A stretch of DNA of 64,000 nucleotides from a phage. Made by a program: the position numbers and the translations under genes. Below are positions 41,118-61,619 of this stretch, piece by piece (the first letter of the stretch is position 1; every line of letters begins with the position of its first letter). Under the pieces are notes generated by a model. It did no database searches. It saw only the letters and a list, made by a program, of their open reading frames with translations, and was not told the origin of the DNA. Location of the stretch: NCBI GenBank assembly GCA_024683775.1, contig GCA_024683775.1_4106.1; one strand, given 5' to 3'.

Positions 41118-41145
41118 AGGGTTGACTTCGGTCAGCCTTTTTTTA
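41118..41145 (+). terminator. terminator-promoter cassette copy 1 (ggTTGACttcgGTCAgcc + T-run), -10 degenerate
   Basis: hairpin 41118-41137, T7 run; TTGACT 41122-41127. Confidence 0.55.
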
Positions 41146-41771
41146 TGGGACAAATTTATTAATGGTGATACAATGATCTATGTACAATCACAATGACAGT
41201 ACTGGTACTGACAATCTTCCCCTACTTCACTTGAAAATGTAAAGGATAGATGAGCTTTTCATTGTAGCGAACAGCAAAAGAAACCCGTTAGATGTGGGCA
41301 TAGTTTGAACCCCTCACGGCAATGCGGCTGTATAAAGAACCACGTTAGGATAGCTGGTGGTTCCTCGATAGACATATAAGGATAACACCTTACGAATTAT
41401 CTAAGGGAGAGTTATCGAATTTTGTACAGGAAAGTTGCGTCCAAAATTTGAGTACTCACATTAAGTATTTGATTGCATAGATACTTAATGAAGATACACT
41501 ATGTTTAAAAGTGTAGACCGTCATATGAAACTGAAGTAGAGAGAAACAGGATGACCCGCTTTCGCACTCGTTATGAGTAATCTTCAATGCAATAGCTCTG
41601 ATACCATCAGCGTCAAATTTCCCTCCGTGCGGGGGGAAGAAAAATCCCTTCCTCAAATCCCGTCAATATTAAAAGTCCTTGACAGTTATGATTCATTCGC
41701 GTAGAATACGTAGTATTAGAAGCGAACAGACATCTCGAAGAGATGGATGATTAACCATTGAGGAATATCTA

Positions 41772-41981
41772 ATGAATTCAGTAATCTTTTTAATTATTGC
41801 TCTTTCACCACAATCTGGTGTACAAATCACCCCAATGAATTCAATGAATCAATGCATTGCAGTACGTGACAGTACGTATGAACAAGTAAACAGCGTTTCA
41901 CTTAGAACAGTTGGTGAAGAATTAATGTGGTGTTACAATAGTAATACTAAAGAAAAACTAATTGTTGGACAAACAGAATGA
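41772..41981 (+). CDS. hypothetical secreted or membrane protein
   Basis: 69 aa, hydrophobic N-terminus. Confidence 0.5.
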   Translation: MNSVIFLIIALSPQSGVQITPMNSMNQCIAVRDSTYEQVNSVSLRTVGEELMWCYNSNTKEKLIVGQTE

Positions 41982-42208
41982 GTTATGGTGTTCGTTTTGA
42001 GATTCGTTCTATTGTTATCAATGACGAGAAACAAGCATCGTTGGATGGCGATATACGAGAACTATATCTATCATGTATCCGTGCGAAATCTGAAGCAGAT
42101 GCCTTAGTACAAATGTATAGTTTTAACTTTTCAAATGGATTCTATTTGGTACGAGTTATTGAAGTGAAAAAAGTACTTATTGGTTGTAGCATAGAAGGAT
42201 TAATGTAA
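41978..42208 (+). CDS. hypothetical protein
   Basis: 76 aa ORF. Confidence 0.5.
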   Translation: MSYGVRFEIRSIVINDEKQASLDGDIRELYLSCIRAKSEADALVQMYSFNFSNGFYLVRVIEVKKVLIGCSIEGLM

Positions 42209-42209
42209 A

Positions 42210-43004
42210 ATGAGCACTATAGATGAATTGATTCGCCGGAATTCAAAATACTACGACCCATCAGAAATTGTCGGCAACATTACTAAATCTGAGTTCGGCC
42301 CAAATACTCGAAAACTCATTCATGTAATGTCACGTGATGGCTTTAAATGTGATTGTTGTGGTGAATCCAATGTGGTATTCACTTTACATAAGCACAGTAC
42401 TAAAGACCGTTATAAATTCAGACCTTATGTACTTAAAGGGAAACGCCTTGTACGCATGACGTTAGACCATAATGTACTGGACTGTCTTCAGGGCGGTAAT
42501 GATAAAGAGAACATGACCGCATTGTGTGAGGATTGTAACGCATTACGCCAGCATAAGTTTGCTGAGTACAGTGAGTTTAAGCACTGGTATCATAACGCTG
42601 ATCGTTCTATCGAGCCTGACGTTAACTACTGCTTCATTGAGTATATTAAGAATGCTAAAGATACGTACATTCTTAAATCAATGTCACCTATTACAGTGTT
42701 CCCTGAGAATCTATTCAGTACTATGCAGCGTGATTTTAAACGTGGTATCATTAATGCATTCAAACATTTAGACAAAGGTATCAAGCACTTTGAGGTGCAA
42801 TGCTTAAATGAAGGAATGAATCGTTTAGTACAAATTTACATGAAATCATTTATAGGTGTTGACACCGCACGTCTACCAGTATATAATTACTTTATTGAAA
42901 GCGAAGAAGGTGAATCACTTCGTGATTATGGTGAAAGATTTAATAATAAAGTTTTCACTGCAATCGCAAACGAGATTCATTACTATAAACCATATGTAAT
43001 TTAA
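42210..43004 (+). CDS. HNH-motif protein (putative HNH endonuclease)
   Basis: 264 aa; CDCCGE...H...LDHN...GGNDKENMTALCEDCNALRQHKF. Confidence 0.5.
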   Translation: MSTIDELIRRNSKYYDPSEIVGNITKSEFGPNTRKLIHVMSRDGFKCDCCGESNVVFTLHKHSTKDRYKFRPYVLKGKRLVRMTLDHNVLDCLQGGNDKENMTALCEDCNALRQHKFAEYSEFKHWYHNADRSIEPDVNYCFIEYIKNAKDTYILKSMSPITVFPENLFSTMQRDFKRGIINAFKHLDKGIKHFEVQCLNEGMNRLVQIYMKSFIGVDTARLPVYNYFIESEEGESLRDYGERFNNKVFTAIANEIHYYKPYVI

Positions 43005-43018
43005 TTAGAGGATATATC

Positions 43019-43201
43019 ATGCAAATCATCATTCTTATCGTAGGTATCATTCTTGGTGTATATGGTCACTCCTGGATGAACGAGAAGTTCCCTAATACCC
43101 GTCCTGAGTATTGCAGTACTAATGTATTCCAGAATGGTGAGAAACCAAAGGATAGTATTGGTAAGAAACTGGACAAAGTACTTGACGTAATCAACGAATA
43201 A
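43019..43201 (+). CDS. hypothetical small membrane protein
   Basis: 60 aa ORF. Confidence 0.45.
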   Translation: MQIIILIVGIILGVYGHSWMNEKFPNTRPEYCSTNVFQNGEKPKDSIGKKLDKVLDVINE

Positions 43202-43210
43202 GGGTAAAGT

Positions 43211-43411
43211 ATGTTTAAATCAAATACAAATGTTGGTAAGAAGGTTCAATTACTTGAGGATGTATCCACCTTGAGTGGAATTTTCCCAAGAGGTCACATC
43301 ATGACTATTATTGCCGAAACATCCCGTGGGTGGGATTTGGAAGATGCTGATGGTAATCGCATCCTTGAGGCTGGATTCTATGGTCATCGTGAATATAAAA
43401 TCATTGATTAA
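43211..43411 (+). CDS. hypothetical protein
   Basis: 66 aa ORF. Confidence 0.5.
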   Translation: MFKSNTNVGKKVQLLEDVSTLSGIFPRGHIMTIIAETSRGWDLEDADGNRILEAGFYGHREYKIID

Positions 43412-43420
43412 GGATGCAAC

Positions 43421-43504
43421 ATGACTTTAGAGATTGTCTTTGGTATTGTTAGCTTAGTCGTCTGTGTGGGTTGGTTTGGGTATCTGATGATTTTTGGTGA
43501 TTAA
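43421..43504 (+). CDS. possible hydrophobic mini-peptide (27 aa)
   Basis: SD aagga; my translation MTLEIVFGIVSLVVCVGWFGYLMIFGD. Confidence 0.3.
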   Translation: MTLEIVFGIVSLVVCVGWFGYLMIFGD

Positions 43505-43507
43505 TAC

Positions 43508-43535
43508 TTGACATAAGATATCAGTACTGTATAAT
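43508..43535 (+). promoter_or_regulatory. class-B promoter TTGACA...cagtactg-TATAAT
   Basis: TTGACA 43508-43513, TATAAT 43530-43535. Confidence 0.5.
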
Positions 43536-43628
43536 GTTTATATCAAAGGGAATGCAGTGAAAGGAAAGACAGCATAATCGTACTCGTCACTGCGTTTCCA
43601 CCCTTTTAAATTAAATGAGGAATTAACT

Positions 43629-43937
43629 ATGTTTCAAACTAACACTCAAGGTTTTGTAATCATCGATTTGAACCAAAACAGCGGTTATTGGATGAAACCT
43701 ACTGACGCATGTATGCAGTTTGATTTTTTAGGTTACAGGATTAGTGTAAGTACTGGTGCTTCTGTACTGCGTGGTGGTTGTATCGTTGAACATCTGGTAA
43801 CAGATCCTGAAGGCCGTGAGTATGAAATCGCAGGTTCAGTACAAGATGCCATTATGTTTGTATGTCAGCGTGAAATGAATAGTTCGAATTCAAATGCACT
43901 GACTCATGCTCTTTCTCAAGAAGTGGAGGTTCGTTAA
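43629..43937 (+). CDS. hypothetical protein
   Basis: 102 aa ORF. Confidence 0.55.
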   Translation: MFQTNTQGFVIIDLNQNSGYWMKPTDACMQFDFLGYRISVSTGASVLRGGCIVEHLVTDPEGREYEIAGSVQDAIMFVCQREMNSSNSNALTHALSQEVEVR

Positions 43938-44188
43938 TGAAATATATCGTAGCAGTACTCGTTGCATTTTTACTCACTGCATGTGACGCTTCAACCAAAG
44001 AACGCACAAGTGATTTTATTCTCCCTATTGAATTACAAGAAGCAGGATGTAAGATTTATCGTATGCAAAAGGACGGTGCTGGCGTAACCTTGTATACAGT
44101 TTATTGCCCTAATGCAAATACCAGTACTGGATACAGCAGCGGTAAAACACGAATCAATACTTCAGTGATTAATGGAGTACAACAATGA
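43937..44188 (+). CDS. putative lipoprotein
   Basis: 83 aa; signal peptide with lipobox LTAC. Confidence 0.55.
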   Translation: MKYIVAVLVAFLLTACDASTKERTSDFILPIELQEAGCKIYRMQKDGAGVTLYTVYCPNANTSTGYSSGKTRINTSVINGVQQ

Positions 44189-44553
44189 GCCTTGATACAA
44201 CCCGTGCAACAGATTTATTAACTCGTCTGAATGATGAAGAATATCTTGCTGAAATAAAGTACAAGCTTGAAAAACTGGCACGAAGTGCTGAAGTAATTGA
44301 AGTTAAAGGTCATTTACCAATGGATCAATTCCATACGTTCAAAGAAGATATGGTTTATTATCCAAATGAAATTTGGATTGAGTGGGAACATTGGACTAAC
44401 AAAACTCTACGCATTGAAGGTTATTGTGTAAATTATGAATCTGAACCTGGTGATGTTACAAAAACTCTCTCCATTTGGTGTACAAAAACACATGAACTAG
44501 TTGAGGTGAATTTGAATTATATGAAAGGTTTCCGTTGGGGTGATGTTAAATGA
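44185..44553 (+). CDS. hypothetical protein
   Basis: 122 aa ORF. Confidence 0.55.
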   Translation: MSLDTTRATDLLTRLNDEEYLAEIKYKLEKLARSAEVIEVKGHLPMDQFHTFKEDMVYYPNEIWIEWEHWTNKTLRIEGYCVNYESEPGDVTKTLSIWCTKTHELVEVNLNYMKGFRWGDVK

Positions 44554-44825
44554 TTAAAAAACTATTGACAGTTGTCTTTGTATTCTGTACAATGTTTCTT
44601 ACAGCATGTAATGATGACGGCAGGTTTAGTGCAAAAGACTTAGTTCGTCAGGATTGTACATTCACAGGTAAGTCTTTTATTAACGAGTATGAGGTATGTA
44701 CACAATCAGGCCGTATCTGTGGTGGTTGGGAAAAACGTCAGGAGAGATTGTATGTATATGAATGCCCTGGACATCTCAACAAAGTACTAAGCACACACAA
44801 ACTTGTTTATGATAAGGTTGAATAA
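44550..44825 (+). CDS. putative lipoprotein
   Basis: 91 aa; signal peptide with lipobox LTAC. Confidence 0.55.
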   Translation: MIKKLLTVVFVFCTMFLTACNDDGRFSAKDLVRQDCTFTGKSFINEYEVCTQSGRICGGWEKRQERLYVYECPGHLNKVLSTHKLVYDKVE

Positions 44826-45040
44826 TGACTACCAATGAAATGATGCAGGTTATTTGGGATAAAGGTTGTGATATTAAAATCACTAGTACTGATGTTCGTG
44901 TATTCAAAACTGAATATATGGAGTACTTGGACCTTGATACTTATAATAATATTGTATCAATTGAACACAAAGGTGCAGTACTGGAAACAATTGACGTAGT
45001 ACTGAAGAAAGCTACCGACCTATTAGGAGCGGCAGTGTGA
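44825..45040 (+). CDS. hypothetical protein
   Basis: 71 aa ORF. Confidence 0.5.
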   Translation: MTTNEMMQVIWDKGCDIKITSTDVRVFKTEYMEYLDLDTYNNIVSIEHKGAVLETIDVVLKKATDLLGAAV

Positions 45041-45183
45041 ATAACAAAGAGTGGGAAGAGTACCGTAAGAAGTGCAGGGAGTTTGATAAAGAACTAACTG
45101 GTACAGTGAATGCAGTAATGTGGGTATCTGTAATTATTGCAGTTCTTGCGTTGGGTGCTATTATTATTAATAAATTATTCTAA
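45037..45183 (+). CDS. possible C-tail-anchored mini-protein (48 aa, GTG start)
   Basis: GTGA overlap with upstream stop; my translation VNNKEWEEYRKKCREFDKELTGTVNAVMWVSVIIAVLALGAIIINKLF. Confidence 0.3.
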   Translation: MNNKEWEEYRKKCREFDKELTGTVNAVMWVSVIIAVLALGAIIINKLF

Positions 45184-45193
45184 GGCGAATATC

Positions 45194-45394
45194 ATGTTTA
45201 CTTTATATCTCGCAGTAGTTCTCACCAATGGTGAAATCACTCGTACTATTGGTGAAGGTGTATATAAAACACCAGACCAGTGCTACTCTGCTACTCATTG
45301 GCCTCGCGATAGTGGGGATGAAACTCGCACTGAATTCAAATGCATGAAAGTAAAAGGTGATTTTGTTAACCTTAAGGTTATCGAGGCGAAATAA
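45194..45394 (+). CDS. hypothetical secreted protein
   Basis: ORF frame 45137-45394; hydrophobic N-terminus. Confidence 0.45.
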   Translation: MFTLYLAVVLTNGEITRTIGEGVYKTPDQCYSATHWPRDSGDETRTEFKCMKVKGDFVNLKVIEAK

Positions 45395-45909
45395 TGGATA
45401 TTAATGAGTTGTTGATCTTATTGTTTAATCGTGGAAATGATGTAAGACGTTCTGAATATCAAGACAAAATTCACATTGAAACTGATAAATGTTATGGTAA
45501 AACAACTCATGAGATTTTGAAGCCAAATGGCAAACGATATGCCGATGTATGTTTTCATGAACGAAGTGATGGTAGTGAAATAATCAGTACTGAAATTGTG
45601 TTTTATGATAGATCCTCGGCAGGTTCGTATGAAATAGAACTTATATATTGCCCTGGTTCAGAAACACACAATAAACGTCAGATATTATATGATGTTTATT
45701 CACCTCCAGGTGTAGCTGAATATTTTGTTATTGATTACAGTACTGAAGAAAGTGTGTTTCAACAGAGCTTGATTCATAACTTCCAGTTGAATGATCCAAA
45801 TGTACCAAAGTTGTTCAAACTACTCGATACTATCGATGTTGATTTTGAATTTGTTATGTGCATTAGAACTTCCTTGATCGATGAATTTATGGAACTACTT
45901 AATATATGA
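45394..45909 (+). CDS. FQxS-signature family protein
   Basis: 171 aa; motif EESVFQQSLIHN. Confidence 0.6.
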   Translation: MDINELLILLFNRGNDVRRSEYQDKIHIETDKCYGKTTHEILKPNGKRYADVCFHERSDGSEIISTEIVFYDRSSAGSYEIELIYCPGSETHNKRQILYDVYSPPGVAEYFVIDYSTEESVFQQSLIHNFQLNDPNVPKLFKLLDTIDVDFEFVMCIRTSLIDEFMELLNI

Positions 45910-46127
45910 ATCGTTACTACATTGTGTATGAGCATGTATCTGAGTTTAATAATGTACGTGGTTATAAGAAAGAAGTACAGAAGATTGATGTATTTGTTCG
46001 TGCATTAAGTCCAACACATGCACTATTTAAATTGTTTGATGAAGTAACTAAGTACAACACATCAAAAACACAACGCTATATTGAAACAGTACATAGTGTA
46101 ATACTCACTGAATATGATGGAGAATGA
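45906..46127 (+). CDS. hypothetical protein
   Basis: 73 aa ORF. Confidence 0.5.
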   Translation: MNRYYIVYEHVSEFNNVRGYKKEVQKIDVFVRALSPTHALFKLFDEVTKYNTSKTQRYIETVHSVILTEYDGE

Positions 46128-46130
46128 CAA

Positions 46131-46349
46131 ATGAATTTATATCTAGTTGAAGGGTCAGTACAAGTATCCAAGCAAGACGGAGAAGGGTATCGTTTTTCAC
46201 ATGTAGAATATTTTAAGTACGTAGTAAAGGCCGATGGTCAGTACGACGCAGAAATTCAGGTTGAAGAATCATTCCGTAAGAAGAATGATATTGGTAAATT
46301 TGAATACCAAGACTTACAATTCACTGTATGGCCTAGTATTAATGACTAA
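46131..46349 (+). CDS. hypothetical protein
   Basis: 72 aa ORF. Confidence 0.5.
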   Translation: MNLYLVEGSVQVSKQDGEGYRFSHVEYFKYVVKADGQYDAEIQVEESFRKKNDIGKFEYQDLQFTVWPSIND

Positions 46350-46350
46350 G

Positions 46351-46557
46351 ATGTGGTGGTGTCATGGTGTCTACAATGTCTATGAATATGGTAGATTCAA
46401 AATGAGCAGTACCTATGCCAGACGTGTTAATGCGAAAACCCAAGTTGATGCTGCTTGTGAGATTGTAGAGTGGTATGCAGAGTTCAATGCAATTGAATAT
46501 ATGTACGAAATAGTTACAATAAATGTTGTACAAATTGACACGTCTTTGATACAATAA
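46351..46557 (+). CDS. hypothetical protein
   Basis: ORF frame 46234-46557; internal start chosen after the upstream stop. Confidence 0.4.
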   Translation: MWWCHGVYNVYEYGRFKMSSTYARRVNAKTQVDAACEIVEWYAEFNAIEYMYEIVTINVVQIDTSLIQ

Positions 46558-46590
46558 CTACATCAAAAAACAACTGCAACTGAGGATACT

Positions 46591-47253
46591 ATGTTAGTTA
46601 ATCTTAATTTCATCACTTCTCCTGATTGGGCATTGCGTGGTGTTTCTTTGAACTTTAAAGAAACTAATTTCGACTACATTGGTGATTGTACTTTAGTTAA
46701 TGCTAAATTTGATCCTCATCATCCTTTTTGGGCTGAAATTCATGATCCTAATGTAAACAATAGTACATCTGTTATGACTATTGTACAGACGAAACATACA
46801 GGTATCCTCGCAGGTTACAGACCAGGACATGCGATTGAACACTTCACTGATTATGATGTAGTAGATGAGTATCCAATGATCCATGAAGATGGAAGTTTAT
46901 ACACGTCAGAAGACTTCCGTGCTATCTTTAATAGTACTGATGACATTCTACCAAGTGGTCGTCCACGTCCTGAGTCTTATCTTATGCACTCGTCTTATGG
47001 TGTAGCAGATACGCTTGAACAGATTTTGACGAAGTACAAGAACCTTATTGAAGGTCCAGAAGAAATTGTCATGTGCTATCATCCAGTACTGAAGTCTGAC
47101 CAACCAGAGAGTGGTGGGTGGCGTTGGCATAAGAATGGTGAGTACATCGGTACTAAGCGTAGTAAAGAACGCTTTGAGTACTTGTATGATGAGCCAGATG
47201 TTGAGGTTGTTTTATGTTATAATTTTCTTAAGGTGAAAAAGAAATGTATCTAG
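46591..47253 (+). CDS. hypothetical protein
   Basis: 220 aa; SD gagga. Confidence 0.6.
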   Translation: MLVNLNFITSPDWALRGVSLNFKETNFDYIGDCTLVNAKFDPHHPFWAEIHDPNVNNSTSVMTIVQTKHTGILAGYRPGHAIEHFTDYDVVDEYPMIHEDGSLYTSEDFRAIFNSTDDILPSGRPRPESYLMHSSYGVADTLEQILTKYKNLIEGPEEIVMCYHPVLKSDQPESGGWRWHKNGEYIGTKRSKERFEYLYDEPDVEVVLCYNFLKVKKKCI

Positions 47254-47486
47254 TATTGAGTTTTGTAGTTGCATTATTGTTTATGTTCTACCCTACACTA
47301 GTAGCAGTAGCCACTAAACGAAAGCTGGTGGATATCACTACTGTATTCTTGCTAAACGTGGCACTCGTTCTAGTGTCTATTATCATTCCCGTGAGCTTTA
47401 CGGTTATTGATATGGCATCTGTATTACTATTCGTCTTCAGTTATCTTATGCTTATTGAAGAAAAACCTGTTGACAAACGTTTGTAG
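47244..47486 (+). CDS. hypothetical small membrane protein
   Basis: 80 aa, two TM helices. Confidence 0.5.
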   Translation: MYLVLSFVVALLFMFYPTLVAVATKRKLVDITTVFLLNVALVLVSIIIPVSFTVIDMASVLLFVFSYLMLIEEKPVDKRL

Positions 47487-47497
47487 TACTGTATAAT
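47470..47497 (+). promoter_or_regulatory. class-B promoter TTGACA...gtagtactg-TATAAT
   Basis: TTGACA 47470-47475, TATAAT 47492-47497. Confidence 0.5.
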
Positions 47498-47544
47498 GGT
47501 TCTTGTAGTCTGAAACTTAACACTTAAACTTGAGGATATAAAAC

Positions 47545-48315: not shown

Positions 48316-48325
48316 GGTATAACAA

Positions 48326-49056: not shown

Positions 49057-49060
49057 ACAT

Positions 49061-49252
49061 ATGTTGATTTATCAATGTGATAACATTCGTGTTATGCAGC
49101 ATCCCTACTTACAAATCTTTGATGTGCAGCAGTATATGGAAGGTGATGATCCAAGAACCTATGGTCGTAAGTATGATTACTTCACTGTAAAGCAGTGTCG
49201 TGACATCAAAGAAGTACGACAATTAGTTCAAGAACTTCAAAATAAAGGTTGA
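49061..49252 (+). CDS. hypothetical protein
   Basis: ORF frame 49031-49252; SD gagga. Confidence 0.45.
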   Translation: MLIYQCDNIRVMQHPYLQIFDVQQYMEGDDPRTYGRKYDYFTVKQCRDIKEVRQLVQELQNKG

Positions 49253-49278
49253 CTTCGGTCAACCTTTTTTGTTATAAT
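49246..49278 (+). promoter_or_regulatory. terminator-promoter cassette copy 2
   Basis: hairpin aggTTGAC-ttcg-GTCAacct 49246-49265, T-run, TATAAT 49273-49278; -35 TTGACT inside the 5' arm. Confidence 0.6.
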
Positions 49279-52832: not shown

Positions 52833-52839
52833 TTAAAAG

Positions 52840-52872
52840 GGGTTGACTTCAGTCAGCCCTTTGTCGTATAAT
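52840..52872 (+). promoter_or_regulatory. terminator-promoter cassette copy 3
   Basis: hairpin gggTTGAC-ttca-GTCAgccc, TATAAT 52867-52872. Confidence 0.6.
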
Positions 52873-52919
52873 ATTTTCATCAAGTGATACAAAATACAAA
52901 CAACGTGAGGTATTAAATT

Positions 52920-53597: not shown

Positions 53598-53619
53598 TGG
53601 TATAGTACAGTGAAAATAG

Positions 53620-53649
53620 GGTTGACTTCGGTCAACCTTTATATATAAT
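53620..53649 (+). promoter_or_regulatory. terminator-promoter cassette copy 4
   Basis: hairpin ggTTGAC-ttcg-GTCAacc, TATAAT 53644-53649. Confidence 0.6.
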
Positions 53650-53662
53650 GGAAGAAATAAAC

Positions 53663-54190
53663 ATGGAACGTTGGAAATTAATTCCTGATTATGACTATTC
53701 AATTTCTGATCATGGAAGAGTAAGAAACGAACAAACTGGATATATAAGTTGTGGATTTAAAAATAAAGATGGGTATGTGAAGGTCGATTTGTATCGCAAT
53801 TCTGTGAAAAATAGAAAGGCGATTCATCGACTAGTAGCTGAAGCATTTTTACCACCACCCACACAGAAACAGTTACAGTGGGCAAGTAGAACAAAGAAAA
53901 AAGTTGTTCACATAAACCATAAAGATTGTAATAGAAGTAACAATCACTATTTGAATTTGGAATGGAACACAGCATCTGAAAACGTACTATATTCTTATTC
54001 ACATGGTAACGCAACAACTAATCGTGGTGCTGCTGTGTTGACATGGGAAATTGTAAGAGAAATAAGAAAAGATTATAATGATAATTATAATGATGTGATA
54101 GAATATGCACGAGAAAATTGTAATAAATACCGTGTATGTAAAAAAACAATACGTCGTATTTTATACAATCAAACATGGATAGAGGATTAA
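53663..54190 (+). CDS. HNH homing endonuclease (NUMOD4-like plus HNH_3)
   Basis: ORF frame 53648-54190, start moved past the promoter -10; WKLIPDYDYSISDHGRVRN...; INHKDCNRSNNHYLNLEW. Confidence 0.8.
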   Translation: MERWKLIPDYDYSISDHGRVRNEQTGYISCGFKNKDGYVKVDLYRNSVKNRKAIHRLVAEAFLPPPTQKQLQWASRTKKKVVHINHKDCNRSNNHYLNLEWNTASENVLYSYSHGNATTNRGAAVLTWEIVREIRKDYNDNYNDVIEYARENCNKYRVCKKTIRRILYNQTWIED

Positions 54191-54194
54191 AAAT

Positions 54195-55688
54195 ATGCCA
54201 CAAGATAATGGGGATATGAAACATCGTAATGGTGGACTAGTACAACACTCGGATAAATGGGCCGACCGAAATCGTCGCAAAAATAGTTATCAAGCAGGAC
54301 AAGGTTCACGTGGTTCACGTAATCAAGGGACAGGTTTAGCTGGTAAGGCAAACGCAGAAGCAGGTGAAGTTAAGAGTACTGAGAACATGACTGAGCTAGA
54401 AAAGCTACGTTATGTTAACTCATTAGGTCTTCTTAACGCAACACAGAAACAACGCCTTGCTGATATGGAACGTGCTGAGAAAGAACAAGCAGTTCCTAAA
54501 GAAGAACCAAAACCAGAAGCTCCTAAAGCAGCTAACCCTGTTAAAGAGTTATCTGATAACTTAGGTAAGATCTTTGCTAACAAACCACAGTTGATTCAGG
54601 GTATTGTCAAAGCACTACAGGCAGTTCCTAAAGAAGAACTCAAAGGTAAAGCACAAGCTGTACTTGATGCAATGAAAGGTAATAAGAGCACTGAACCCAC
54701 TGAAGTATTCAGTACTATCATGCGTGCACTTGAAGGTACACACAAAGAAGATTCGAAAGAACCTGAACAGGGTGAAGCAAGTCTTGATGGTATTCTTAAA
54801 ACTTTTGATAGTATTGGTAAAGCAGACCGTGCTAATGCCCAGCAAGTCAAGAATGTACTGGCTAAACTTGAAAACCGTTTAGAAGGTAAAGACGATAAGG
54901 TTAAGCTCGTATCAGATGCAGTTAACAGTGCACTTAAATCTTATGTACAAGGTGAGAAAAGTCGCTTCGTAACAGCTATGGATGCTGCATTCAACACTAT
55001 GAAAAAGTATGAAGCAGAACATGGTGAGAAAGTGACACCTGATGGATATCTACTACGTAAAGATGAAGAAGGTGCAGTTGAACAGAAAGATGTTGAGCCT
55101 GAGCAAGAAGATCTACCTGATACCGTTGATATGGATGGATACATTCATCGTCCTGAGATGGAAGAGTTTGGGTCAGATAAAGAAGGTTTTGAACATGCAA
55201 TGGCAGTATATAAAGCATTAGTTAAAAATCCAGATTATGCTAACCGTTTTGTTGACGAGTTTGATAGTGCATGGAATAACTACAAAGACAAAGGTTATGA
55301 CTTCCCTGCTGAAGCTGCATTCTTTGAACTTGGTAAACTATTAGCTAAACATGGAATTGACGTTGGTTCATCTGATTCTGACGGTATGGAAGAAGAACAT
55401 CTTGAAATGACTGATAAATCAATTCATGAACTTCAAAAGTTAATGATGTGGATATCCGAGATTGGTAAAAAAGCAGGTGCTGATAGTAAAAGTATCAACA
55501 AAAATATTAGTTGGATTAAAGATAATGTTGGTAACAATGCTCGTAAACTTCAAAAGGCTTGGGCTGATTTAGTAAATGGTGCAGATGATGTTGACATTGA
55601 ATCACCAGAAGCATATGAGTATGCACTAACTACACTTGATAACTCATTCAAAGAGTACGACCGTGGTGTTGGAAAGGATAAAAAATAA
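54195..55688 (+). CDS. hypothetical large charged protein (K/E-rich)
   Basis: 497 aa; N-terminal LRYVNSLGLLNATQ resembles 52449-52832. Confidence 0.6.
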   Translation: MPQDNGDMKHRNGGLVQHSDKWADRNRRKNSYQAGQGSRGSRNQGTGLAGKANAEAGEVKSTENMTELEKLRYVNSLGLLNATQKQRLADMERAEKEQAVPKEEPKPEAPKAANPVKELSDNLGKIFANKPQLIQGIVKALQAVPKEELKGKAQAVLDAMKGNKSTEPTEVFSTIMRALEGTHKEDSKEPEQGEASLDGILKTFDSIGKADRANAQQVKNVLAKLENRLEGKDDKVKLVSDAVNSALKSYVQGEKSRFVTAMDAAFNTMKKYEAEHGEKVTPDGYLLRKDEEGAVEQKDVEPEQEDLPDTVDMDGYIHRPEMEEFGSDKEGFEHAMAVYKALVKNPDYANRFVDEFDSAWNNYKDKGYDFPAEAAFFELGKLLAKHGIDVGSSDSDGMEEEHLEMTDKSIHELQKLMMWISEIGKKAGADSKSINKNISWIKDNVGNNARKLQKAWADLVNGADDVDIESPEAYEYALTTLDNSFKEYDRGVGKDKK

Positions 55689-55697
55689 ACATTTAAA

Positions 55698-55730
55698 AGG
55701 TTGACTTCGGTCAACCTTTTTTTGTAAATA
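55698..55730 (+). promoter_or_regulatory. terminator-promoter cassette copy 5 (weak -10)
   Basis: hairpin aggTTGAC-ttcg-GTCAacct plus T7 run. Confidence 0.55.
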
Positions 55731-55759
55731 TTGTAGAGGGTTTTATAAGAGGTAATGCA

Positions 55760-56011
55760 ATGTTTAAATATGTTTTATTTTCACTTGTATTGTTTACTGA
55801 TATAGTTTATAGTACTGAATACCAGTGCTCTATTGCTAGACAGGAGTTTAGAAACGGTGAGTTCTATACCAAGTCTTACACTAGAGGATTGGTACATGAC
55901 AATAATAAAACTATAGGGTTCAATGCATTTGATAACAAAGATCGATATACGTCTGGAATACTATCTGAACGTAAGTCGGATGTAATAGGTATCGAGCATG
56001 AATTCCGGTGA
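55760..56011 (+). CDS. hypothetical secreted protein
   Basis: 83 aa, signal-like N-terminus. Confidence 0.5.
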   Translation: MFKYVLFSLVLFTDIVYSTEYQCSIARQEFRNGEFYTKSYTRGLVHDNNKTIGFNAFDNKDRYTSGILSERKSDVIGIEHEFR

Positions 56012-56372
56012 CACAGTTGCAATGTGTAATGATATTGAGAGTACTAAGAAAGTATATACTAATGGTGAAAATACCTTTAGATTCCACAATCTTACTACCA
56101 ATGAAAGTTTATACTTCTACAACTGTAAAGAGTTCATTAAACCTGTGGATAACTCATGTGATATGCCGGAGCCAAAAGCTGCTGTATGTGAGGAACCACA
56201 ATCCAAAGCTGACAAAGATTCAAAAGATAAGAAAGACAAAGCTGACAAATTGGATAAAAAAGAAAACAAAAAGAAAGCTAAAGATGATAAAGATAAAAAG
56301 TCCCCTAAGCCAAATCCATTTGAAAAGCCAAAGAATGAAAAGCCAAAACCAGACATGACATGTAAAATATAA
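55998..56372 (+). CDS. hypothetical protein with K/D-rich low-complexity C-terminus
   Basis: 124 aa; overlaps 55760-56011 by 14 nt in a different frame; alternative ORF 56008-56358 covers the same DNA. Confidence 0.4.
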   Translation: MNSGDTVAMCNDIESTKKVYTNGENTFRFHNLTTNESLYFYNCKEFIKPVDNSCDMPEPKAAVCEEPQSKADKDSKDKKDKADKLDKKENKKKAKDDKDKKSPKPNPFEKPKNEKPKPDMTCKI

Positions 56373-56379
56373 AAGAAAA

Positions 56380-56412
56380 GGGTTGACTTCGGTCGGCCCT
56401 TTTTGCTATAAT
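56380..56412 (+). promoter_or_regulatory. terminator-promoter cassette copy 6
   Basis: hairpin gggTTGAC-ttcg-GTCggccc, TTTTT, GCTATAAT (TATAAT 56407-56412). Confidence 0.6.
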
Positions 56413-56438
56413 CATTTCATCAACTACTGGAGGCAAAC

Positions 56439-56852
56439 ATGTTAAAAGTTATTTTCCGTTCTATCAGTTCATTACTTCTTATGATTAGTTCAGTTTCTTA
56501 TGCAAATGAAGTATCTGACTTGTTTGAGAAGAATTACCCAACTGCACAAGAGATGGGTGTTTTAAAATGCAAGCTAACTTCGTACAACATCATCGGCAGT
56601 AAACTTGTACTGGAACATGAACGTAGTACACCAATCCCTCTAGTAGAAGAAGGCAGTACCTTTAGCTTCAAGTACGGGGTGAACGTAACATCTGGTGTAA
56701 TGAACAATGTTGATGCAGAGACTGGTTCAACATGGAGTACTAGCGGTAAAGATGTGTTTCATCGTATGCGTGAAAATGGTAAACTGAAGTACGTATATGA
56801 AAGTTCATTCATGAAACGTGTATTCATTATAAAAAATTGTGTACCAGCATAA
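56439..56852 (+). CDS. hypothetical secreted protein
   Basis: 137 aa, signal-like N-terminus. Confidence 0.55.
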   Translation: MLKVIFRSISSLLLMISSVSYANEVSDLFEKNYPTAQEMGVLKCKLTSYNIIGSKLVLEHERSTPIPLVEEGSTFSFKYGVNVTSGVMNNVDAETGSTWSTSGKDVFHRMRENGKLKYVYESSFMKRVFIIKNCVPA

Positions 56853-56863
56853 GGAACAACATC

Positions 56864-57139
56864 ATGCGTTCATTTGAAAACTTAATCGGTAAACTTCGCT
56901 TACAAGAAATTGAAGATGATGTGAAGGAATTATCTGAAACTAAGAGTTACATTCATTTAGATGAACTGTTTATTAAGTACGGTGAGATTGGTTTTAAGTC
57001 ATTATTTGTTTTTGTCATGAAGGTGCATAGTTTAAAGTACTTTGATTTGAGTTCAAAAGACGGACAACCAAATCTGTATTACATGTATTATCTTAAGAAC
57101 ATAGACGAAGCTAATACATTATTCTTAGAATATATGTAG
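56864..57139 (+). CDS. hypothetical protein
   Basis: ORF frame 56837-57139; SD aaggaa. Confidence 0.5.
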   Translation: MRSFENLIGKLRLQEIEDDVKELSETKSYIHLDELFIKYGEIGFKSLFVFVMKVHSLKYFDLSSKDGQPNLYYMYYLKNIDEANTLFLEYM

Positions 57140-57148
57140 GGGGTAAAA

Positions 57149-57487
57149 ATGGAACATCATTTTGAATTAATTAATAAGGTATCATTTTATGTAGTATCGT
57201 TAATTTGGGTGTATTACATGTTTTGTTACATTATTGCATTCTTCCGATACACAACCTTGTATCAACGCATATACTACGATGCACCCATTTCATTTATGAT
57301 GTTCTGTGCATGTACGTGGGGGATAATTGAAGCACTGGTATGTGGATATAGTACTGACGAATTAAATCTCGTATCGGGGTTGACATTACTAACAATTGCC
57401 ATTATGATAGCTACTGTTCCGATATTTTTGCTCTTTAAACTGCTTCATCGTATTGATGAGTGGCGTAATAAAATCCCTGAAAAGTAA
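57149..57487 (+). CDS. small membrane protein, paralog family M (C-terminal R-x-K-I-P-E)
   Basis: 112 aa; three hydrophobic helices; tail ...RNKIPEK. Confidence 0.55.
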   Translation: MEHHFELINKVSFYVVSLIWVYYMFCYIIAFFRYTTLYQRIYYDAPISFMMFCACTWGIIEALVCGYSTDELNLVSGLTLLTIAIMIATVPIFLLFKLLHRIDEWRNKIPEK

Positions 57488-57490
57488 GGA

Positions 57491-57838
57491 TTGATAATGA
57501 TTTTTTACACTAATGCGTTTGCTTATGCCGTTGCATCAATCTACATTGTGTACTTCTTATTTGGTGGAGTACTGTACTTCTTTAAGTACAAAACATTGTT
57601 TAACCGAATGTATCCAAATCATCCAATTGTAGTAGTACTTTTGATTATTTCTGTTGCTCACATCATTGTAGAAACAATAATGGGTATCAGTGCAGTACAT
57701 TACAGTCTAGGTACTATTGTAATTATTACTATGATCATCGCATACATTTTAGTAATGGGTTTTGGTTTATTTGGAAATGTAGCAATGAAATTGTATAATC
57801 GAATCAAAACATTACGTGATAATCTACCGGAGCGTTGA
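57491..57838 (+). CDS. small membrane protein, paralog family M
   Basis: 115 aa; tail ...RDNLPER. Confidence 0.55.
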   Translation: MIMIFYTNAFAYAVASIYIVYFLFGGVLYFFKYKTLFNRMYPNHPIVVVLLIISVAHIIVETIMGISAVHYSLGTIVIITMIIAYILVMGFGLFGNVAMKLYNRIKTLRDNLPER

Positions 57839-57839
57839 G

Positions 57840-58184
57840 ATGTATAATTTAAATTTAATATCATATATCATAACAACACTGTTTACTTTCTATGCCTTTG
57901 TTGGTATACTCCTACTGTACTTTAAATTTTATAAACTTTTTGATCGTTTTTATCCGTCATTAGAACATGAATTCTTATTAGTGATGTACATATGTCTAAC
58001 GTTTATGTCTACATTTTTCACTGCATCTGATGGTATCATTGGTATTAAAGCTGAAGAACCAAATGGGAGTACGCTTGTTGCCTTTATTCTGGTAGGATTT
58101 TTCAGTACTTATATTACCTTTATTTCAGGATGTACCGTGATTGATTATCTTGTGAAATTACGAGATAAAATGCCAAATCGATAG
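57840..58184 (+). CDS. small membrane protein, paralog family M
   Basis: ORF frame 57816-58184; tail ...RDKMPNR. Confidence 0.5.
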   Translation: MYNLNLISYIITTLFTFYAFVGILLLYFKFYKLFDRFYPSLEHEFLLVMYICLTFMSTFFTASDGIIGIKAEEPNGSTLVAFILVGFFSTYITFISGCTVIDYLVKLRDKMPNR

Positions 58185-58193
58185 GGGATTGCT

Positions 58194-58451
58194 ATGTTTG
58201 CATTGCGTAATAAAAATACAAAAGAGATTCTGTGTATCTCAACAGTATGGGATTGTGCAGGAAGTGAAATGATTCTCGAAGAAGGTTCAGGTGATTGTGT
58301 TTATGTTGTTCAGGATCGTCGCGAACTGGAATCATTACTTGACGAATTTAATGCTGGTGGAAATCCTAAAAGTACTCAATTCCCTGAGATCAGGAATCCA
58401 GCACCACCAGGCTCTTATGAAATTCTACAACTGTGGGAGATGGATAAGTAA
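58194..58451 (+). CDS. hypothetical protein
   Basis: 85 aa ORF. Confidence 0.5.
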   Translation: MFALRNKNTKEILCISTVWDCAGSEMILEEGSGDCVYVVQDRRELESLLDEFNAGGNPKSTQFPEIRNPAPPGSYEILQLWEMDK

Positions 58452-58831
58452 TGCGTCAAATGCACAAAGTAACCGAGCTAAACAAGCGTCTGATTAAACA
58501 ATCAATGTTTGAGGATAAAGAGTCTTACTATAACTTCAAACGTGCTGTAGAGGCTGCTATCCACATTCAGAAGCTTAAAGATAGTGGATGTATTATTCTC
58601 GAAAATGGTTCTGACGTTGTTACTGATGACTTCAGTGTAGCGTTTGATGTTTCACCTGATGGTTCGCTATCAATGCCACGCTTAGGGACTGGTGACATGA
58701 CTGTGTGGGTAGGTTTCACTATGGGGAATGTACCAGGCACGGTGTATGTAGATGATGCTGAGTTGAAAGAAAGCTTCAAAAACTTATCGCATCTTGAACC
58801 ACAATACGCACATGAAATGAATTTATTTTGA
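58451..58831 (+). CDS. hypothetical protein
   Basis: 126 aa ORF. Confidence 0.55.
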   Translation: MRQMHKVTELNKRLIKQSMFEDKESYYNFKRAVEAAIHIQKLKDSGCIILENGSDVVTDDFSVAFDVSPDGSLSMPRLGTGDMTVWVGFTMGNVPGTVYVDDAELKESFKNLSHLEPQYAHEMNLF

Positions 58832-58833
58832 GT

Positions 58834-58860
58834 TGACAAACTCATTCAGTACTGTATAAT
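58834..58860 (+). promoter_or_regulatory. class-B promoter TTGACA...ttcagtactg-TATAAT
   Basis: TTGACA 58834-58839, TATAAT 58855-58860. Confidence 0.5.
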
Positions 58861-58907
58861 GTTTATCAAGGGGATGAACTTCTCATCCCCACAATCGAGG
58901 AATTGTC

Positions 58908-59462
58908 ATGATTACTTTTAAGAAAACTGCTAACCACATCCATGAGATCTACATTAACGGTCACAAAGCTGGCCTTCTTCGTTTACTCGCCCATCATCCG
59001 AATATTACCGTATCTGATAATGAACCTAAAGATTGGCGTGTATTTTTCTTTGGAAAGTACAGTGATTTTCAAGTATCAAACCTGAAGAACATTCGTTCAG
59101 TATGCACGTTAACTGAAATTAAAGAAAAGTTAACCAAAGCATTGAAAACTAATCCAGATAGTGTTCTTCCACCTGATAACTTTGTAGAGAAAGGATATGC
59201 CTTAGCTCATTTCAAAGATGGTACTATTCAATCTATCAGTACTGAATATGAATATCAATGGACTGAGTACTTCACTTATGGATCGCGTAATACATTGATG
59301 GCTTCACGTAGTAAATTGGAAGAAGTACTGACTCGTATGAATGAACGCGAGCGTCAATTTTATGACAAACCAGAAATGTGGAGTTCAACTTACATTGACC
59401 GTATTGACTATGTTATTATGACTCCAATCTTTGACACTGCTTACTATGATTCTTTGAAATAA
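58908..59462 (+). CDS. hypothetical protein
   Basis: 184 aa ORF. Confidence 0.55.
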   Translation: MITFKKTANHIHEIYINGHKAGLLRLLAHHPNITVSDNEPKDWRVFFFGKYSDFQVSNLKNIRSVCTLTEIKEKLTKALKTNPDSVLPPDNFVEKGYALAHFKDGTIQSISTEYEYQWTEYFTYGSRNTLMASRSKLEEVLTRMNERERQFYDKPEMWSSTYIDRIDYVIMTPIFDTAYYDSLK

Positions 59463-59473
59463 GGATAACTTAT

Positions 59474-59650
59474 ATGAAACTACGTACTCGTAATCGACTG
59501 ATGGATGCACTGTACCATGAACAGCTTTCACTGAATGAAGTGAAGCGTCAGTTAATGTACACATATCTGTTACCCGCTCGCATTGCAAAACAACGTGCTA
59601 AAGAATTGCTGAAAGAAGCAATCGAGTACTGGGAATCTGATTCGTACTAA
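59474..59650 (+). CDS. possible small protein (58 aa)
   Basis: SD aaggata; my translation MKLRTRNRLMDALYHEQLSLNEVKRQLMYTYLLPARIAKQRAKELLKEAIEYWESDSY. Confidence 0.45.
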   Translation: MKLRTRNRLMDALYHEQLSLNEVKRQLMYTYLLPARIAKQRAKELLKEAIEYWESDSY

Positions 59651-59678
59651 TTGTCACGTTAATTAAGTGAGGCGATAA

Positions 59679-59930
59679 ATGAAAATTTTATTAGTTCTAA
59701 TACTACTAATTGTTTTACCATTTACGTTAGTATCCCCTGAACTTGCATGGAATGTGTTTGTGTACTTACTATGTACTATTGTAGTAAATGGTATCTTGTT
59801 CTTAGTTCTATTCATAAATGGAATAGGACACGGTGGAGGATGGACCAGTACTGCTGATATTGTACATAAAACCACTATGTCTTTATTTGTAGTGTGGAAT
59901 TTATTCTGGACTTGGTTTGTGTTCTTCTAA
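59679..59930 (+). CDS. hypothetical membrane protein
   Basis: 83 aa ORF. Confidence 0.5.
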   Translation: MKILLVLILLIVLPFTLVSPELAWNVFVYLLCTIVVNGILFLVLFINGIGHGGGWTSTADIVHKTTMSLFVVWNLFWTWFVFF

Positions 59931-59939
59931 TTAAAAAAT

Positions 59940-60311
59940 ATGAATATAGATTTGAAAGGTGCAACCCGAACTGTCATACTCATTGGGGAATATGCTATCA
60001 AGATTCCAACCTTTAAAAGTTGGAAGCTATTCTTAACAGGGATGATAGCTAACCTCAATGAACGTTCTTGGATGCAGTACTCCAAGCGTAGTGATAGTGG
60101 TATCTGCCCTACGTTGTGGTCATCATGTACTGGACTAGTAACTGTACAGAAACGTTGTAAGCCAGTACAACATAGGGGTTTATTTTGGGTGGAGTTGTGT
60201 GCTTTAGCATTGGATTCAGAGTTGAGTACTGACTTCTTCTATTCAGATGCGAAGCCAGAAAACTTTGGGTATCTGGGTGGTAAGTTAGTTAAACTTGATT
60301 ATGGAGATTAA
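59940..60311 (+). CDS. hypothetical protein
   Basis: 123 aa ORF. Confidence 0.5.
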   Translation: MNIDLKGATRTVILIGEYAIKIPTFKSWKLFLTGMIANLNERSWMQYSKRSDSGICPTLWSSCTGLVTVQKRCKPVQHRGLFWVELCALALDSELSTDFFYSDAKPENFGYLGGKLVKLDYGD

Positions 60312-60312
60312 T

Positions 60313-60600
60313 ATGTACGCACTGTATAATAAAGAAAAGAAACAATTTGCTAAGGTTGAAAAATCGATTGATACATTTGGCATGTTTAAGTACTGTATTG
60401 TGACGGACCCATATGCTAACTTGTATTACGTTCTTGATGACGTATCAGTACTGCAACGATTGCTTGAACGTTCCAAAAGCCAATGCCAAGGTATCCATGA
60501 TGGTTCAACTTATGAAACACCTGAGTGTTCCTATGGCTATCTGGATGGGTATGAGATTGTGAAGTTGGGTGCATTGTTGAATAAATGGATTAAACAATGA
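60313..60600 (+). CDS. hypothetical protein
   Basis: ORF frame 60295-60600. Confidence 0.5.
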   Translation: MYALYNKEKKQFAKVEKSIDTFGMFKYCIVTDPYANLYYVLDDVSVLQRLLERSKSQCQGIHDGSTYETPECSYGYLDGYEIVKLGALLNKWIKQ

Positions 60601-61010
60601 AGAAGTGTATCACGTGTAATATTGAAAAAGACATTAGTGAATTTGGTATAAGAAGTGATACTGGGAAACATAGAAATACATGCAAAGGTTGTAGTAATAT
60701 TACCAGTAAGAGAACCAGAAATAAAAAAACTGATGTAAAAACACTTGAAGAAATCAAAAGAAAAAATAAAGATTTCATGACCAGAGTTAAATCATTTTAT
60801 GGTTGTAGTGTTTGTATGATGAAGTATCCAGAATGTTTAGACTTTCACCATCTTGACCCTAATACCAAAGAACATACACCAAGTTCTATGTTCAGTAAAA
60901 GTCGAGAATCTATCAAAGATGAAATTCGAAAGTGTATGATTCTTTGTTCTAATCACCATCGCATGGTACATTCTGGTAGACTATGTTTGATTGAAAGAAA
61001 AAAGGGTTGA
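60597..61010 (+). CDS. HNH endonuclease
   Basis: 137 aa; CITC...C..C...CSVCMM...FHHLDPNTK...CSNHHRMVH. Confidence 0.75.
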   Translation: MKKCITCNIEKDISEFGIRSDTGKHRNTCKGCSNITSKRTRNKKTDVKTLEEIKRKNKDFMTRVKSFYGCSVCMMKYPECLDFHHLDPNTKEHTPSSMFSKSRESIKDEIRKCMILCSNHHRMVHSGRLCLIERKKG

Positions 61011-61036
61011 CTTCGGTCAGCCCTTTTTGCTATAAT
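61004..61036 (+). promoter_or_regulatory. terminator-promoter cassette copy 7
   Basis: hairpin gggTTGAC-ttcg-GTCAgccc 61004-61023, TTTTT, TATAAT 61031-61036. Confidence 0.6.
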
Positions 61037-61064
61037 CATTTCATCGAAACGAGAGGATGAATAC

Positions 61065-61580
61065 ATGACACGCATTAACTTAGTACACGTTAAAGAACTT
61101 GCTGACCAACATCTGATGGCTGAATATCGTGAACTCCCACGTGTGTTTGGTGCTGTACAAAAACATGTTCAAGCACGTAAGCGAGTCCGTGATTTCAAAA
61201 TTAACAGTACTTACCTGTTAGGTTCAGGTCATGTAACATTCTTCTACAACAAGTTATTGTACTTACAGAAGCGTCATATTGATATTGTTAACGAATGTTT
61301 GCGTCGTGGGATGAAGATTCAAAACACTGAAGTAAACGACATTAGCGGATTCCCTACTGAGTTTTGTAATGACTACGTACCATCGGAGTCAGAGATTAAA
61401 ATGTCTCGTGAGCGTTTGATTGAGAAGCTACAGATGAAGCCTACGTGGTATAAGTTTACTGATGTTGAACGCCCACAGTACGTTAAAGATATGCAGGACG
61501 TAAGTAGTAATATAGAATCTAGTACTGATATGTTCGACGAAATTGAAGAACAAATCAAAGATGAAATGAATAATTATTAA
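61065..61580 (+). CDS. denV: pyrimidine-dimer DNA glycosylase/AP lyase (T4 endonuclease V family)
   Basis: 171 aa; N-terminus [31 protein letters not shown]... recalled as near-identical to the T4 EndoV N-terminus (active-site Thr2 and Glu23 context). Confidence 0.85.
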
Positions 61581-61586
61581 AGGTAA

Positions 61587-61619
61587 GGGTTGACTTCGGT
61601 CAGCCCTTTTTGCTATAAT
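61587..61619 (+). promoter_or_regulatory. terminator-promoter cassette copy 8
   Basis: hairpin gggTTGAC-ttcg-GTCAgccc 61587-61606, TTTTT, TATAAT 61614-61619. Confidence 0.6.

Follow-up and report, generated by a model that had tools for sequence, protein, structure and literature searches.

The window analyzed here, a 64,000-nucleotide (nt) stretch of phage DNA (contig GCA_024683775.1_4106.1 of GenBank assembly GCA_024683775.1), carries eight copies of a short cassette in which a hairpin terminator and a sigma70-type promoter appear to be fused. Very probably these cassettes are terminator-promoter composites of the promoter-early stem-loop (PeSL) type, situated in a 121Q-like jumbo coliphage between early genes that share one orientation. 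A search with GGTTGACTTCGGTCARCC, allowing up to two mismatches, returned eight matches on the + strand (41120, 49247, 52841, 53620, 55699, 56381, 61005 and 61588) against a chance expectation of zero from 100 dinucleotide-preserving shuffles, which bears out the eight copies listed in a first-pass annotation of the sequence. The core of the copies reads GGTTGAC-TTCG-GTCARCC on the + strand. No further copy was found in the window at up to four mismatches to the core on either strand, nor at up to eight mismatches to the 32-nt unit. All eight are intergenic and co-oriented with the genes. They are packed into 20.5 kb that hold mostly small hypothetical open reading frames (ORFs), and the remaining 43 kb, including the first 41 kb, contains none. 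Megablast places the window in the 121Q/PBECO4 group of jumbo coliphages (Asteriusvirus). Its 40000-64000 part is 99.2% identical to EC.P1 over the full length; over the same span fEgEco12, WPEC3 and others are 97-99% identical with gaps, and 121Q, PBECO4 and G17 are 86-88% identical over two thirds. The G+C content is 31-38% throughout and almost all genes are on the + strand.

Six of the eight copies are complete, with TTGACT in the 5' arm of the hairpin as the -35 hexamer and TATAAT as the -10 hexamer. The spacer is 18 bp in the copies at 49247, 52841, 56381, 61005 and 61588 and 16 bp in the copy at 53620, and four of the six have an extended -10 (TGn). The copies at 41120 and 55699 are terminator-only, with TATGGG and TGTAAA as the best hexamers at promoter spacing and no acceptable -10. 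The earlier description, in which every copy had both hexamers 16-18 bp apart and lay between two + strand genes, thus applies to six copies in the first respect and to seven in the second; the copy at 41120 is followed by ~630 nt without an ORF of at least 50 amino acids. A-runs lie upstream of the window copies, and a Shine-Dalgarno (SD) sequence and start codon follow ~20-50 nt past the -10. At 49247 and 61005 the TGA within TTGAC serves as the stop codon of the upstream ORF (with ORFs listed from their first possible start). The cassettes and associated features are as follows, with folding free energies (dG) in kcal/mol.

41116-41144, + strand: cassette 1, terminator-only; hairpin AAAGGGTTGAC-TTCG-GTCAGCCTTTT and T-run, dG -13.9, no -10 at 16-18 bp; the phage sigma-factor gene 40146-41111 stops directly upstream; a promoter-like site distinct from the cassette (GGGACA-16-TACAAT, with TG) begins at 41147.
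49244-49278, + strand: cassette 2, complete; hairpin 49244-49267, dG -13.3, z -5.3; -35 TTGACT 49249-49254, TGT and TATAAT 49273-49278, spacer 18 bp, predicted start ~49285; the upstream ORF stops at TGA 49250-49252 and the next ORF starts at ATG 49308.
52837-52872, + strand: cassette 3, complete; loop TTCA, weak T-run CCCTTTGTCG, dG -16.0; -35 52843-52848, TATAAT 52867-52872, predicted start ~52879.
53618-53649, + strand: cassette 4; hairpin 53618-53639, dG -12.1; TATAAT 53644-53649, spacer 16 bp.
55695-55723, + strand: cassette 5, terminator-only; hairpin AAAAGGTTGAC-TTCG-GTCAACCTTTT and T-run, dG -14.2, no -10; 3' of a gene for a 497-amino-acid product annotated in relatives as a virion structural protein.
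56375-56412, + strand: cassette 6, complete; 13-bp stem with two U-G pairs (GTCGGCC), dG -18.0; -35 56383-56388, TGC and TATAAT 56407-56412, predicted start ~56419; SD GGAGG, ATG 56439.
60999-61036, + strand: cassette 7, complete; 13-bp stem, dG -19.0; -35 61007-61012, TGC and TATAAT 61031-61036, predicted start ~61043; between upstream ORF 60597-61010 (stop TGA 61008-61010) and the denV-like gene 61065-61580 (Pyr_excise, ATG 61065).
61585-61619, + strand: cassette 8, complete; dG -16.7; -35 61590-61595, TGC and TATAAT 61614-61619, predicted start ~61626; ATG 61648.
53663-54190, + strand: homing endonuclease gene (Pfam HNH_3 and NUMOD4), inserted right after hairpin 4.
589-643, + strand: related layout; TTGACA 589-594, 17 bp, TATAAT 612-617, then TTTT; stem arms ~596-607 and 628-639 (12 bp) enclose the -10 and predicted start, dG -21.2, z -5.84.

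In the proposed working of the cassettes, a transcript arriving from upstream would contain the GGGUUGAC-UUCG-GUCAGCCC hairpin followed by the U-tract, and polymerase would release its RNA just before or within the -10. The same DNA would act as a sigma70-type promoter that has its -35 in TTGACT of the 5' arm, a spacer made up of the 3' arm and the T-run, and then TGn-TATAAT. New transcripts would start at a conserved A ~7 nt past the -10, a restart point ~15 nt beyond the place where the upstream transcript stops. Because this start is downstream of the hairpin, the hairpin is absent from the promoter-born RNA, which should not be terminated by its own cassette. A separate stop and start would insulate the next gene from upstream read-through and give it a strong start of its own, and the expected outcome is a series of short early transcripts, each separately started and stopped. 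As with PeSLs, the cassettes probably have a second role: as dispersed direct repeats they would serve as points of gain, loss or exchange of gene modules. The stop-then-restart reading, already put forward in the first-pass annotation, is supported by the hairpin energies, the linkage to a -10, the start context and the stem covariation described below, and from these sequence features we infer that the cassettes terminate and initiate transcription in vivo and that host sigma70 recognizes them. The element at 589-643, where a -10 inside a hairpin loop had been noted and is confirmed, may follow the same logic, but with its predicted start inside the loop.

The GC-rich hairpin followed by a T-run had been taken for an intrinsic terminator, and the folding calculations agree. 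The window hairpins have 9-13 pairs, counting flanking A-U pairs, and a 4-nt loop, and fold at -12.1 to -19.0 kcal/mol (z -3.6 to -6.1). The T-run that follows is at least five long in six of the eight and weaker in the copies at 52841 and 53620. Folding of the opposite strand is poorer by 6-8 kcal/mol, at -10.1 (copy 56381, against -18.0 on the + strand) and -13.3 kcal/mol. For a wider comparison, 122 distinct cassettes were collected from all fetched loci with a pattern that fixes most of the core; the T-run, the -10, TGn and the start context lie outside this pattern. The loop is 4 nt long in all 122, and its 26 sequences comprise mainly UNCG (82 cassettes), with GNRA in 8, two RNA tetraloop classes of extra stability. 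Opposite the first T of TTGAC the pair is U-G rather than U-A in 101 of the 122, including cassettes of Brochothrix phage A9 and of vibriophages, and one WPEC3 ortholog (L007:18883) has three G-U pairs. Such U-G stem pairs become C-A mismatches when read on the opposite strand. Since they make folding strand-specific, an RNA structure is favored over a symmetric DNA cruciform. One idea is that the U-G pair removes a mirror-image TTGAC from the other strand.

The pair immediately outside the core covaries (G-C 90, A-U 18, G-U 10, other 4 among the 122). In an alignment of 111 distinct cassettes, 94.3% of the cells are paired, and two-sided changes occupy 34 cells compared with 9.3 +/- 2.6 in shuffles, none of 500 of which reached 34. 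Sliding the partner by 1-3 columns lowers pairing to 25-62%. Genuine double changes include GATTGAC...GTCAGTC in 121Q and TTGGC...GCCAA in the G17 ortholog (L001:2864) of the terminator-only copy 41120, so that the 5' arm of this ortholog is off the -35 consensus exactly where the -10 is absent; such drift is what would be expected if TTGAC is kept only where a promoter is present. The compensatory G-U changes claimed earlier for two window copies stand only in part. That at 52841 changes TTCG to TTCA and, being located in the loop, is not compensatory. At 56381 a one-sided A-to-G change in the 3' arm turns U-A into U-G and gives a second U-G pair, so that the structure is kept. An Rfam search of the whole window at the gathering threshold passed only transfer RNAs (tRNAs), and at an E-value threshold positions 41100-41800 gave a single weak match, to the PhrS 3' end (E = 0.17), which is just the terminator hairpin.

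The promoter half is linked to the hairpin well beyond the window. A -10, mainly TATTAT or TATAAT, stands at 16-18 bp in 111 of the 122 distinct cassettes, and 91 of the 122 have TGn. At +7 past the -10, 99 of 113 cassettes have A, and at +6, 107 of 113 have C or T; pyrimidine-A is the usual transcription start context. IMG/VR phage contigs contain 61 copies of the exact 18-mer core, in 42 stretches, and most of the copies are followed by a T-run and TAT(A/T)AT at 17-18 bp. A -10 with at least five of six matches lies at 16-18 bp in 43 of these 61 copies, and the remainder mostly have weaker TAT-type hexamers. A list of terminator-like hairpins in the window, drawn up blind to sequence, also separates the cassettes from other terminators: all six hairpins with a -10 5-8 nt past the stem have the TTGAC stem, and ~10 other terminator-like hairpins at 1-41 kb have unrelated stems and no -10 at that place (Fisher p = 0.0015).

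Beyond the start base, CATC occupies +6 to +9 in 33 of the 113 cassettes and ATCGAAAC is found in 15 of 113; the cassettes concerned are among the RaK2-like, KVP40 and CR3 sets. This conservation may reflect a leader or initial transcribed sequence in common. In some cassettes of 121Q and of relatives that are uncultivated (L020:1965, L028, L035, L010:2022), the motif ACTAACCCAT(A/T)GGGTG recurs in the transcribed region past the -10, in the place of the Shine-Dalgarno sequence and start codon, and this motif may be a small structured RNA or leader element.

PeSLs were described in the T4-like phages RB49/phi1, T4/PST and KVP40/nt-1 as small cassettes that combine a strong sigma70-like promoter with a stem-loop terminator and are concentrated in variable regions (Arbiol 2010, PMC2839356; Comeau 2014, PMC4122927). 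They fall into five positional subclasses in the RB49/phi1 set, one of which has the stem-loop overlapping the -35, and their published consensus is A3-4 G3-loop-C3 T3-4 with TTGYVH-N17-TAWWAT. In lacZ fusions they act as promoters and as terminators, one stem-loop lowering lacZ read-through as much as rrnB T1, and they take part in gene shuffling and, as in RB49, in excised mini-circles (PMC2839356; PMC4122927). "Half PeSLs" have also been described (Comeau 2014, PMC4122927), to which the two of eight window copies without a -10 are comparable. KVP40 cassettes, read directly from the sequence, have the form AAAAGGG-TTGC-TTCG-GCAA-CCCTTTTT-GCG-TATTAT or AAAAGGG-TTGAC-TGCG-GTCAG-CCCTTT-CGCG-TATTAT, and similar. 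These match the published consensus and place the -35 in the 5' arm as in the window. The layout AAAGGG-TTG...-CCCTTTT-TG-TATTAT is common to KVP40 and the window, and one KVP40 copy is 80% identical over 49 nt to the cassette. Because KVP40/PeSL cassettes already put the -35 in the stem, the fused design is not new. Like PeSLs, the window cassettes are intergenic, co-oriented with small genes of unassigned function and clustered in variable regions, with hexamers 16-18 bp apart (6/8), a stable stem-loop (8/8) and cassette-bounded insertions, deletions and replacements. PeSLs also share with them an A-rich stretch around the stop codon upstream and a Shine-Dalgarno sequence with start codon downstream. 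They differ in belonging to Asteriusvirus, the RaK2/121Q type of jumbo phage, rather than to the T4-like groups, and in being far more uniform, with one hairpin sequence in place of the five subclasses of RB49/phi1. Their promoter and terminator activities are predicted from sequence, whereas those of PeSLs, and the mini-circles, have been shown by experiment.

The cassettes thus appear to be of PeSL type in a phage group in which these were previously undescribed. No description of PeSLs in the RaK2/121Q group was found in the literature, nor any text that joins terminators with promoters. The G17 record lists the hairpins as ARNOLD terminators. In the CBB paper, terminators and RpoD-like promoters (the latter in the predicted early region) are separate predictions and are not linked. 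The papers on fEgEco12, UE-S1 and Sharanji mention no promoters, terminators or hairpins, a literature search by the hairpin sequence itself returned nothing relevant, and a review of jumbo phages has PeSLs only in its reference list.

Other known systems share single features with the cassettes. The window copies have the GC-rich hairpin and subsequent U-rich tract of canonical intrinsic terminators, which likewise have a GC-rich stem and a UUCG tetraloop closed by C-G; the 5' arm of those terminators is free, whereas here it is fixed as TTGAC with a -10 at promoter spacing. Terminators with C(UUCG)G tetraloops were reportedly noted in T4 intercistronic regions by Tuerk et al. in 1988. Lambdoid moron cassettes likewise bring their own start and stop signals with the module, whereas here one fused element serves both neighbors and marks exchange points. 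The promoters of the N4 virion RNA polymerase, a phage single-subunit enzyme, have a 5-7 bp DNA stem with a 3-nt loop and resemble the cassettes in having a short hairpin that overlaps the promoter. An N4-type hairpin promoter was rejected on the grounds of the invariant 4-nt loop, the sigma70 hexamers and the G-U pairs, which point to RNA.

Comparison with relatives connects the cassettes to rearrangement. Synteny breaks relative to G17, 121Q, A4, WPEC3 and fEgEco12 fall at or inside cassettes, and in the comparison with G17 a cassette is found within 45 nt of four of the 14 break ends, with 3.5% expected (p = 0.001). At the 61588 site, where the window has a single cassette, A4 carries a 2.0-kb two-gene module between two full cassettes, and in G17 and 121Q a stretch of 2.1-2.9 kb is flanked by one half cassette and one full cassette. 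In the half cassette, unrelated sequence begins after the 5' arm, the loop and GGT, which places the junction inside the hairpin, as reported for the RB49 mini-circles of PeSLs. Around cassette 56381 the sequence to either side differs by a replacement that spans 56131-56850, with a protein kinase gene downstream in G17, and further breaks lie at 52883, 53640 and 60990. In the break at 53640-54246, divergence from the relatives begins right after hairpin 4 and TTT. The homing endonuclease gene inserted there displaces the native promoter half and the first codons of a structural gene; the -35 of cassette 4 is retained and is paired with a new TATAAT at 16 bp. This gene is absent from fEgEco12, WPEC3, 121Q and G17, and among sequenced phages only the EC.P1 lineage has it. 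Its membership in a family of cassette-homing endonucleases was considered and rejected, as its next relatives are below 45% identity and come from unrelated phages. ORF 60597-61010 is similarly inserted between the upstream stop codon and the hairpin at 61005 and ends on the TGA inside TTGAC; it is annotated as an HNH endonuclease in fEgEco12 and is absent from G17 and 121Q. The inserted endonuclease genes seem to borrow cassette signals.

Several points weigh against the composite PeSL-type reading. Literature searches found no 5'/3' end mapping for this phage or its close relatives. The 18-bp spacer exceeds the 17-bp optimum, and with their weak T-runs copies 52841 and 53620 may terminate poorly. 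Since the search pattern fixes most of the core, the conservation of the core in the 122-cassette set is partly built in. Copies 41120 and 55699 keep TTGAC without a -10, so that the copies may be alike in part because of recent duplication or gene conversion, and not because the -35 is under selection. Finally, the phage encodes a sigma70-family factor of its own (40146-41111; Pfam Sigma70_r2/r3), which might be the sigma that reads these promoters. The same architecture could then be read by the phage sigma instead of host sigma70 and drive later rather than immediate-early genes. The position of that gene directly upstream of the first cassette fits this view, as do the extended -10 in 91 of 122 cassettes, an element contacted by sigma region 3, and the annotation of two genes of the cluster as virion structural proteins in relatives. 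Against it, the hexamers are near-perfect to the host sigma70 consensus, the same cassette is present in other lineages (KVP40, CR3, Brochothrix A9) and RpoD-like promoters mark the predicted early region of the related phage CBB. Reading by the phage sigma is considered unlikely.

The remaining alternatives deny one or both functions. Were the cassettes promoters only, the hairpin would be a 3'-end stabilizer or processing site on read-through RNA, or a DNA cruciform that tunes the promoter with supercoiling. The poor U-tracts of 52841 and 53620 and the near-perfect DNA palindrome that overlaps the -35 could be so explained, but most copies have a T-run of at least five after the stem, the G-U pairs make the structure strand-specific, the enrichment of UNCG and GNRA tetraloops is a feature of RNA stability, and the PeSL stem-loop cut lacZ read-through as strongly as rrnB T1. 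This possibility is regarded as decidedly improbable. A shade less credible still is the converse, that the cassettes only terminate and that matches to TTGAC and TATAAT simply follow from the AT-richness of the genome and the repetition of a hairpin, with no transcription starts. It accounts for the hairpins without a -10 at 41120 and 55699, for the annotation of the hairpins in the G17 GenBank record simply as ARNOLD-predicted terminators, and for the lack of overall enrichment of promoter-like matches in this AT-rich region (74 against 88.6 expected). It does not account for a -10 that keeps its spacing in 111 of the 122 cassettes, which come from several phage lineages, for TGn in 91 of the 122, for the conserved pyrimidine-A at +6/+7 or for the Shine-Dalgarno sequence and start codon ~20-30 nt downstream. 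Moreover, the remaining terminators in the window have unrelated stems and no adjoining -10, and the terminator-only ortholog in G17 has drifted to TTGGC with compensating GCCAA. Finally, near-identical, dispersed copies, with endonuclease-type insertions (53663-54190 and 60597-61010) adjoining cassettes, might suggest a selfish repeat or a homing-endonuclease target with no regulatory role. Apart from the hairpin itself, however, the copies have no terminal inverted repeats or target duplications, no gene closely related to the HNH gene at 53663 lies beside other cassettes, and orthologous copies hold their positions across phages that are only 73-88% identical. A repeat resembling miniature inverted-repeat transposable elements (MITE) or repetitive extragenic palindromic (REP) sequences was rejected because the copies, without exception, are intergenic and point the same way as the genes, and selfish repetition as a whole is extremely improbable.

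A search of phages for the unit, suggested in the first-pass annotation, matched 254 phage records with a 50-nt cassette query. These include Asteriusvirus, RaK2/K64-1 (Alcyoneusvirus), Salmonella phages Munch and 7t3, Serratia phage BF, Erwinia jumbo phages and CBB, and also KVP40-like vibriophages, Aeromonas T4-likes, and the Cronobacter CR3/CR9 and Pectobacterium CB7 groups. Of the eight exact copies in 121Q, seven are clustered at 97-118 kb; those of RaK2 are at 200-226 kb and those of CBB at 332-348 kb. Exact copies occur in Brochothrix phage A9, whose host is Gram-positive. For contig L011, with five cassettes, the phage collection holds no relative that has been cultured.

A near-identical unit, GGGTTGAC-UUCG-GUCAGCCC with a T-run, TGnTAT(A/T)AT and a pyrimidine-A start, is thus shared by Asteriusvirus, RaK2-like and KVP40-like phages, CR3 and A9. 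Convergence is plausible because a function can be named for nearly every position, whether in the -35, TGn and the -10, in the complementary arm and the GC clamp, in the closing C-G and the stable tetraloop, or in the U-tract. It leaves unexplained the U-G pair shared at one stem position across lineages. The cassette may instead spread horizontally as a portable regulatory module, an idea held only tentatively and with little expectation that it will prove right. A linked idea is that the overlap of release site and promoter lets a just-terminated polymerase re-initiate on the spot. If horizontal spread were true, the shared U-G wobble would be a mark of common descent or of functional need.

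On the composite PeSL-type reading, the cassettes would already chart transcription across the early region in 121Q-type jumbo phages. This group is under development for therapy, and its current records list the cassettes as terminators only or omit them. PeSL-style cassettes and the linked gene shuffling would extend beyond the T4-like phages, the same solution appearing in several unrelated large phages. For engineering, the cassette may offer a compact part of ~40 bp with which to shield a gene from transcription arriving from upstream and to start it anew, and its natural variants in loop, wobble pairs and T-run length may form a graded series.

Other features of the window were recorded. 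The ~630 nt past the sigma gene (41142-41771) contain no ORF of at least 50 amino acids in a sensible frame on either strand and no Rfam match, lie inside an alignment block 82% identical to G17 and have promoter-like sites at 41147 and 41679; an RNA or small proteins may be encoded there. A second repeated promoter family, TTGAC(A/T)-N8/9-CAGTACTG-TATAATG, occurs at 22343, 22764, 43508, 47470 and 58833. Its palindrome CAGTACTG abuts the -10, and it has no hairpin terminator. Strong sigma70-like promoters, with at least five of six matches in both hexamers, number 50 on the + strand and 9 on the - strand of positions 1-64000. Intergenic promoters of perfect consensus lie at 589, 14698, 16558, 20823, 20967, 28462, 35365, 42859, 43508, 47470 and 58833. 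Seven tRNA genes (two Ser, three Met, Asn and Thr) occupy 21649-28854 on the + strand, three of them with the anticodon CAT.

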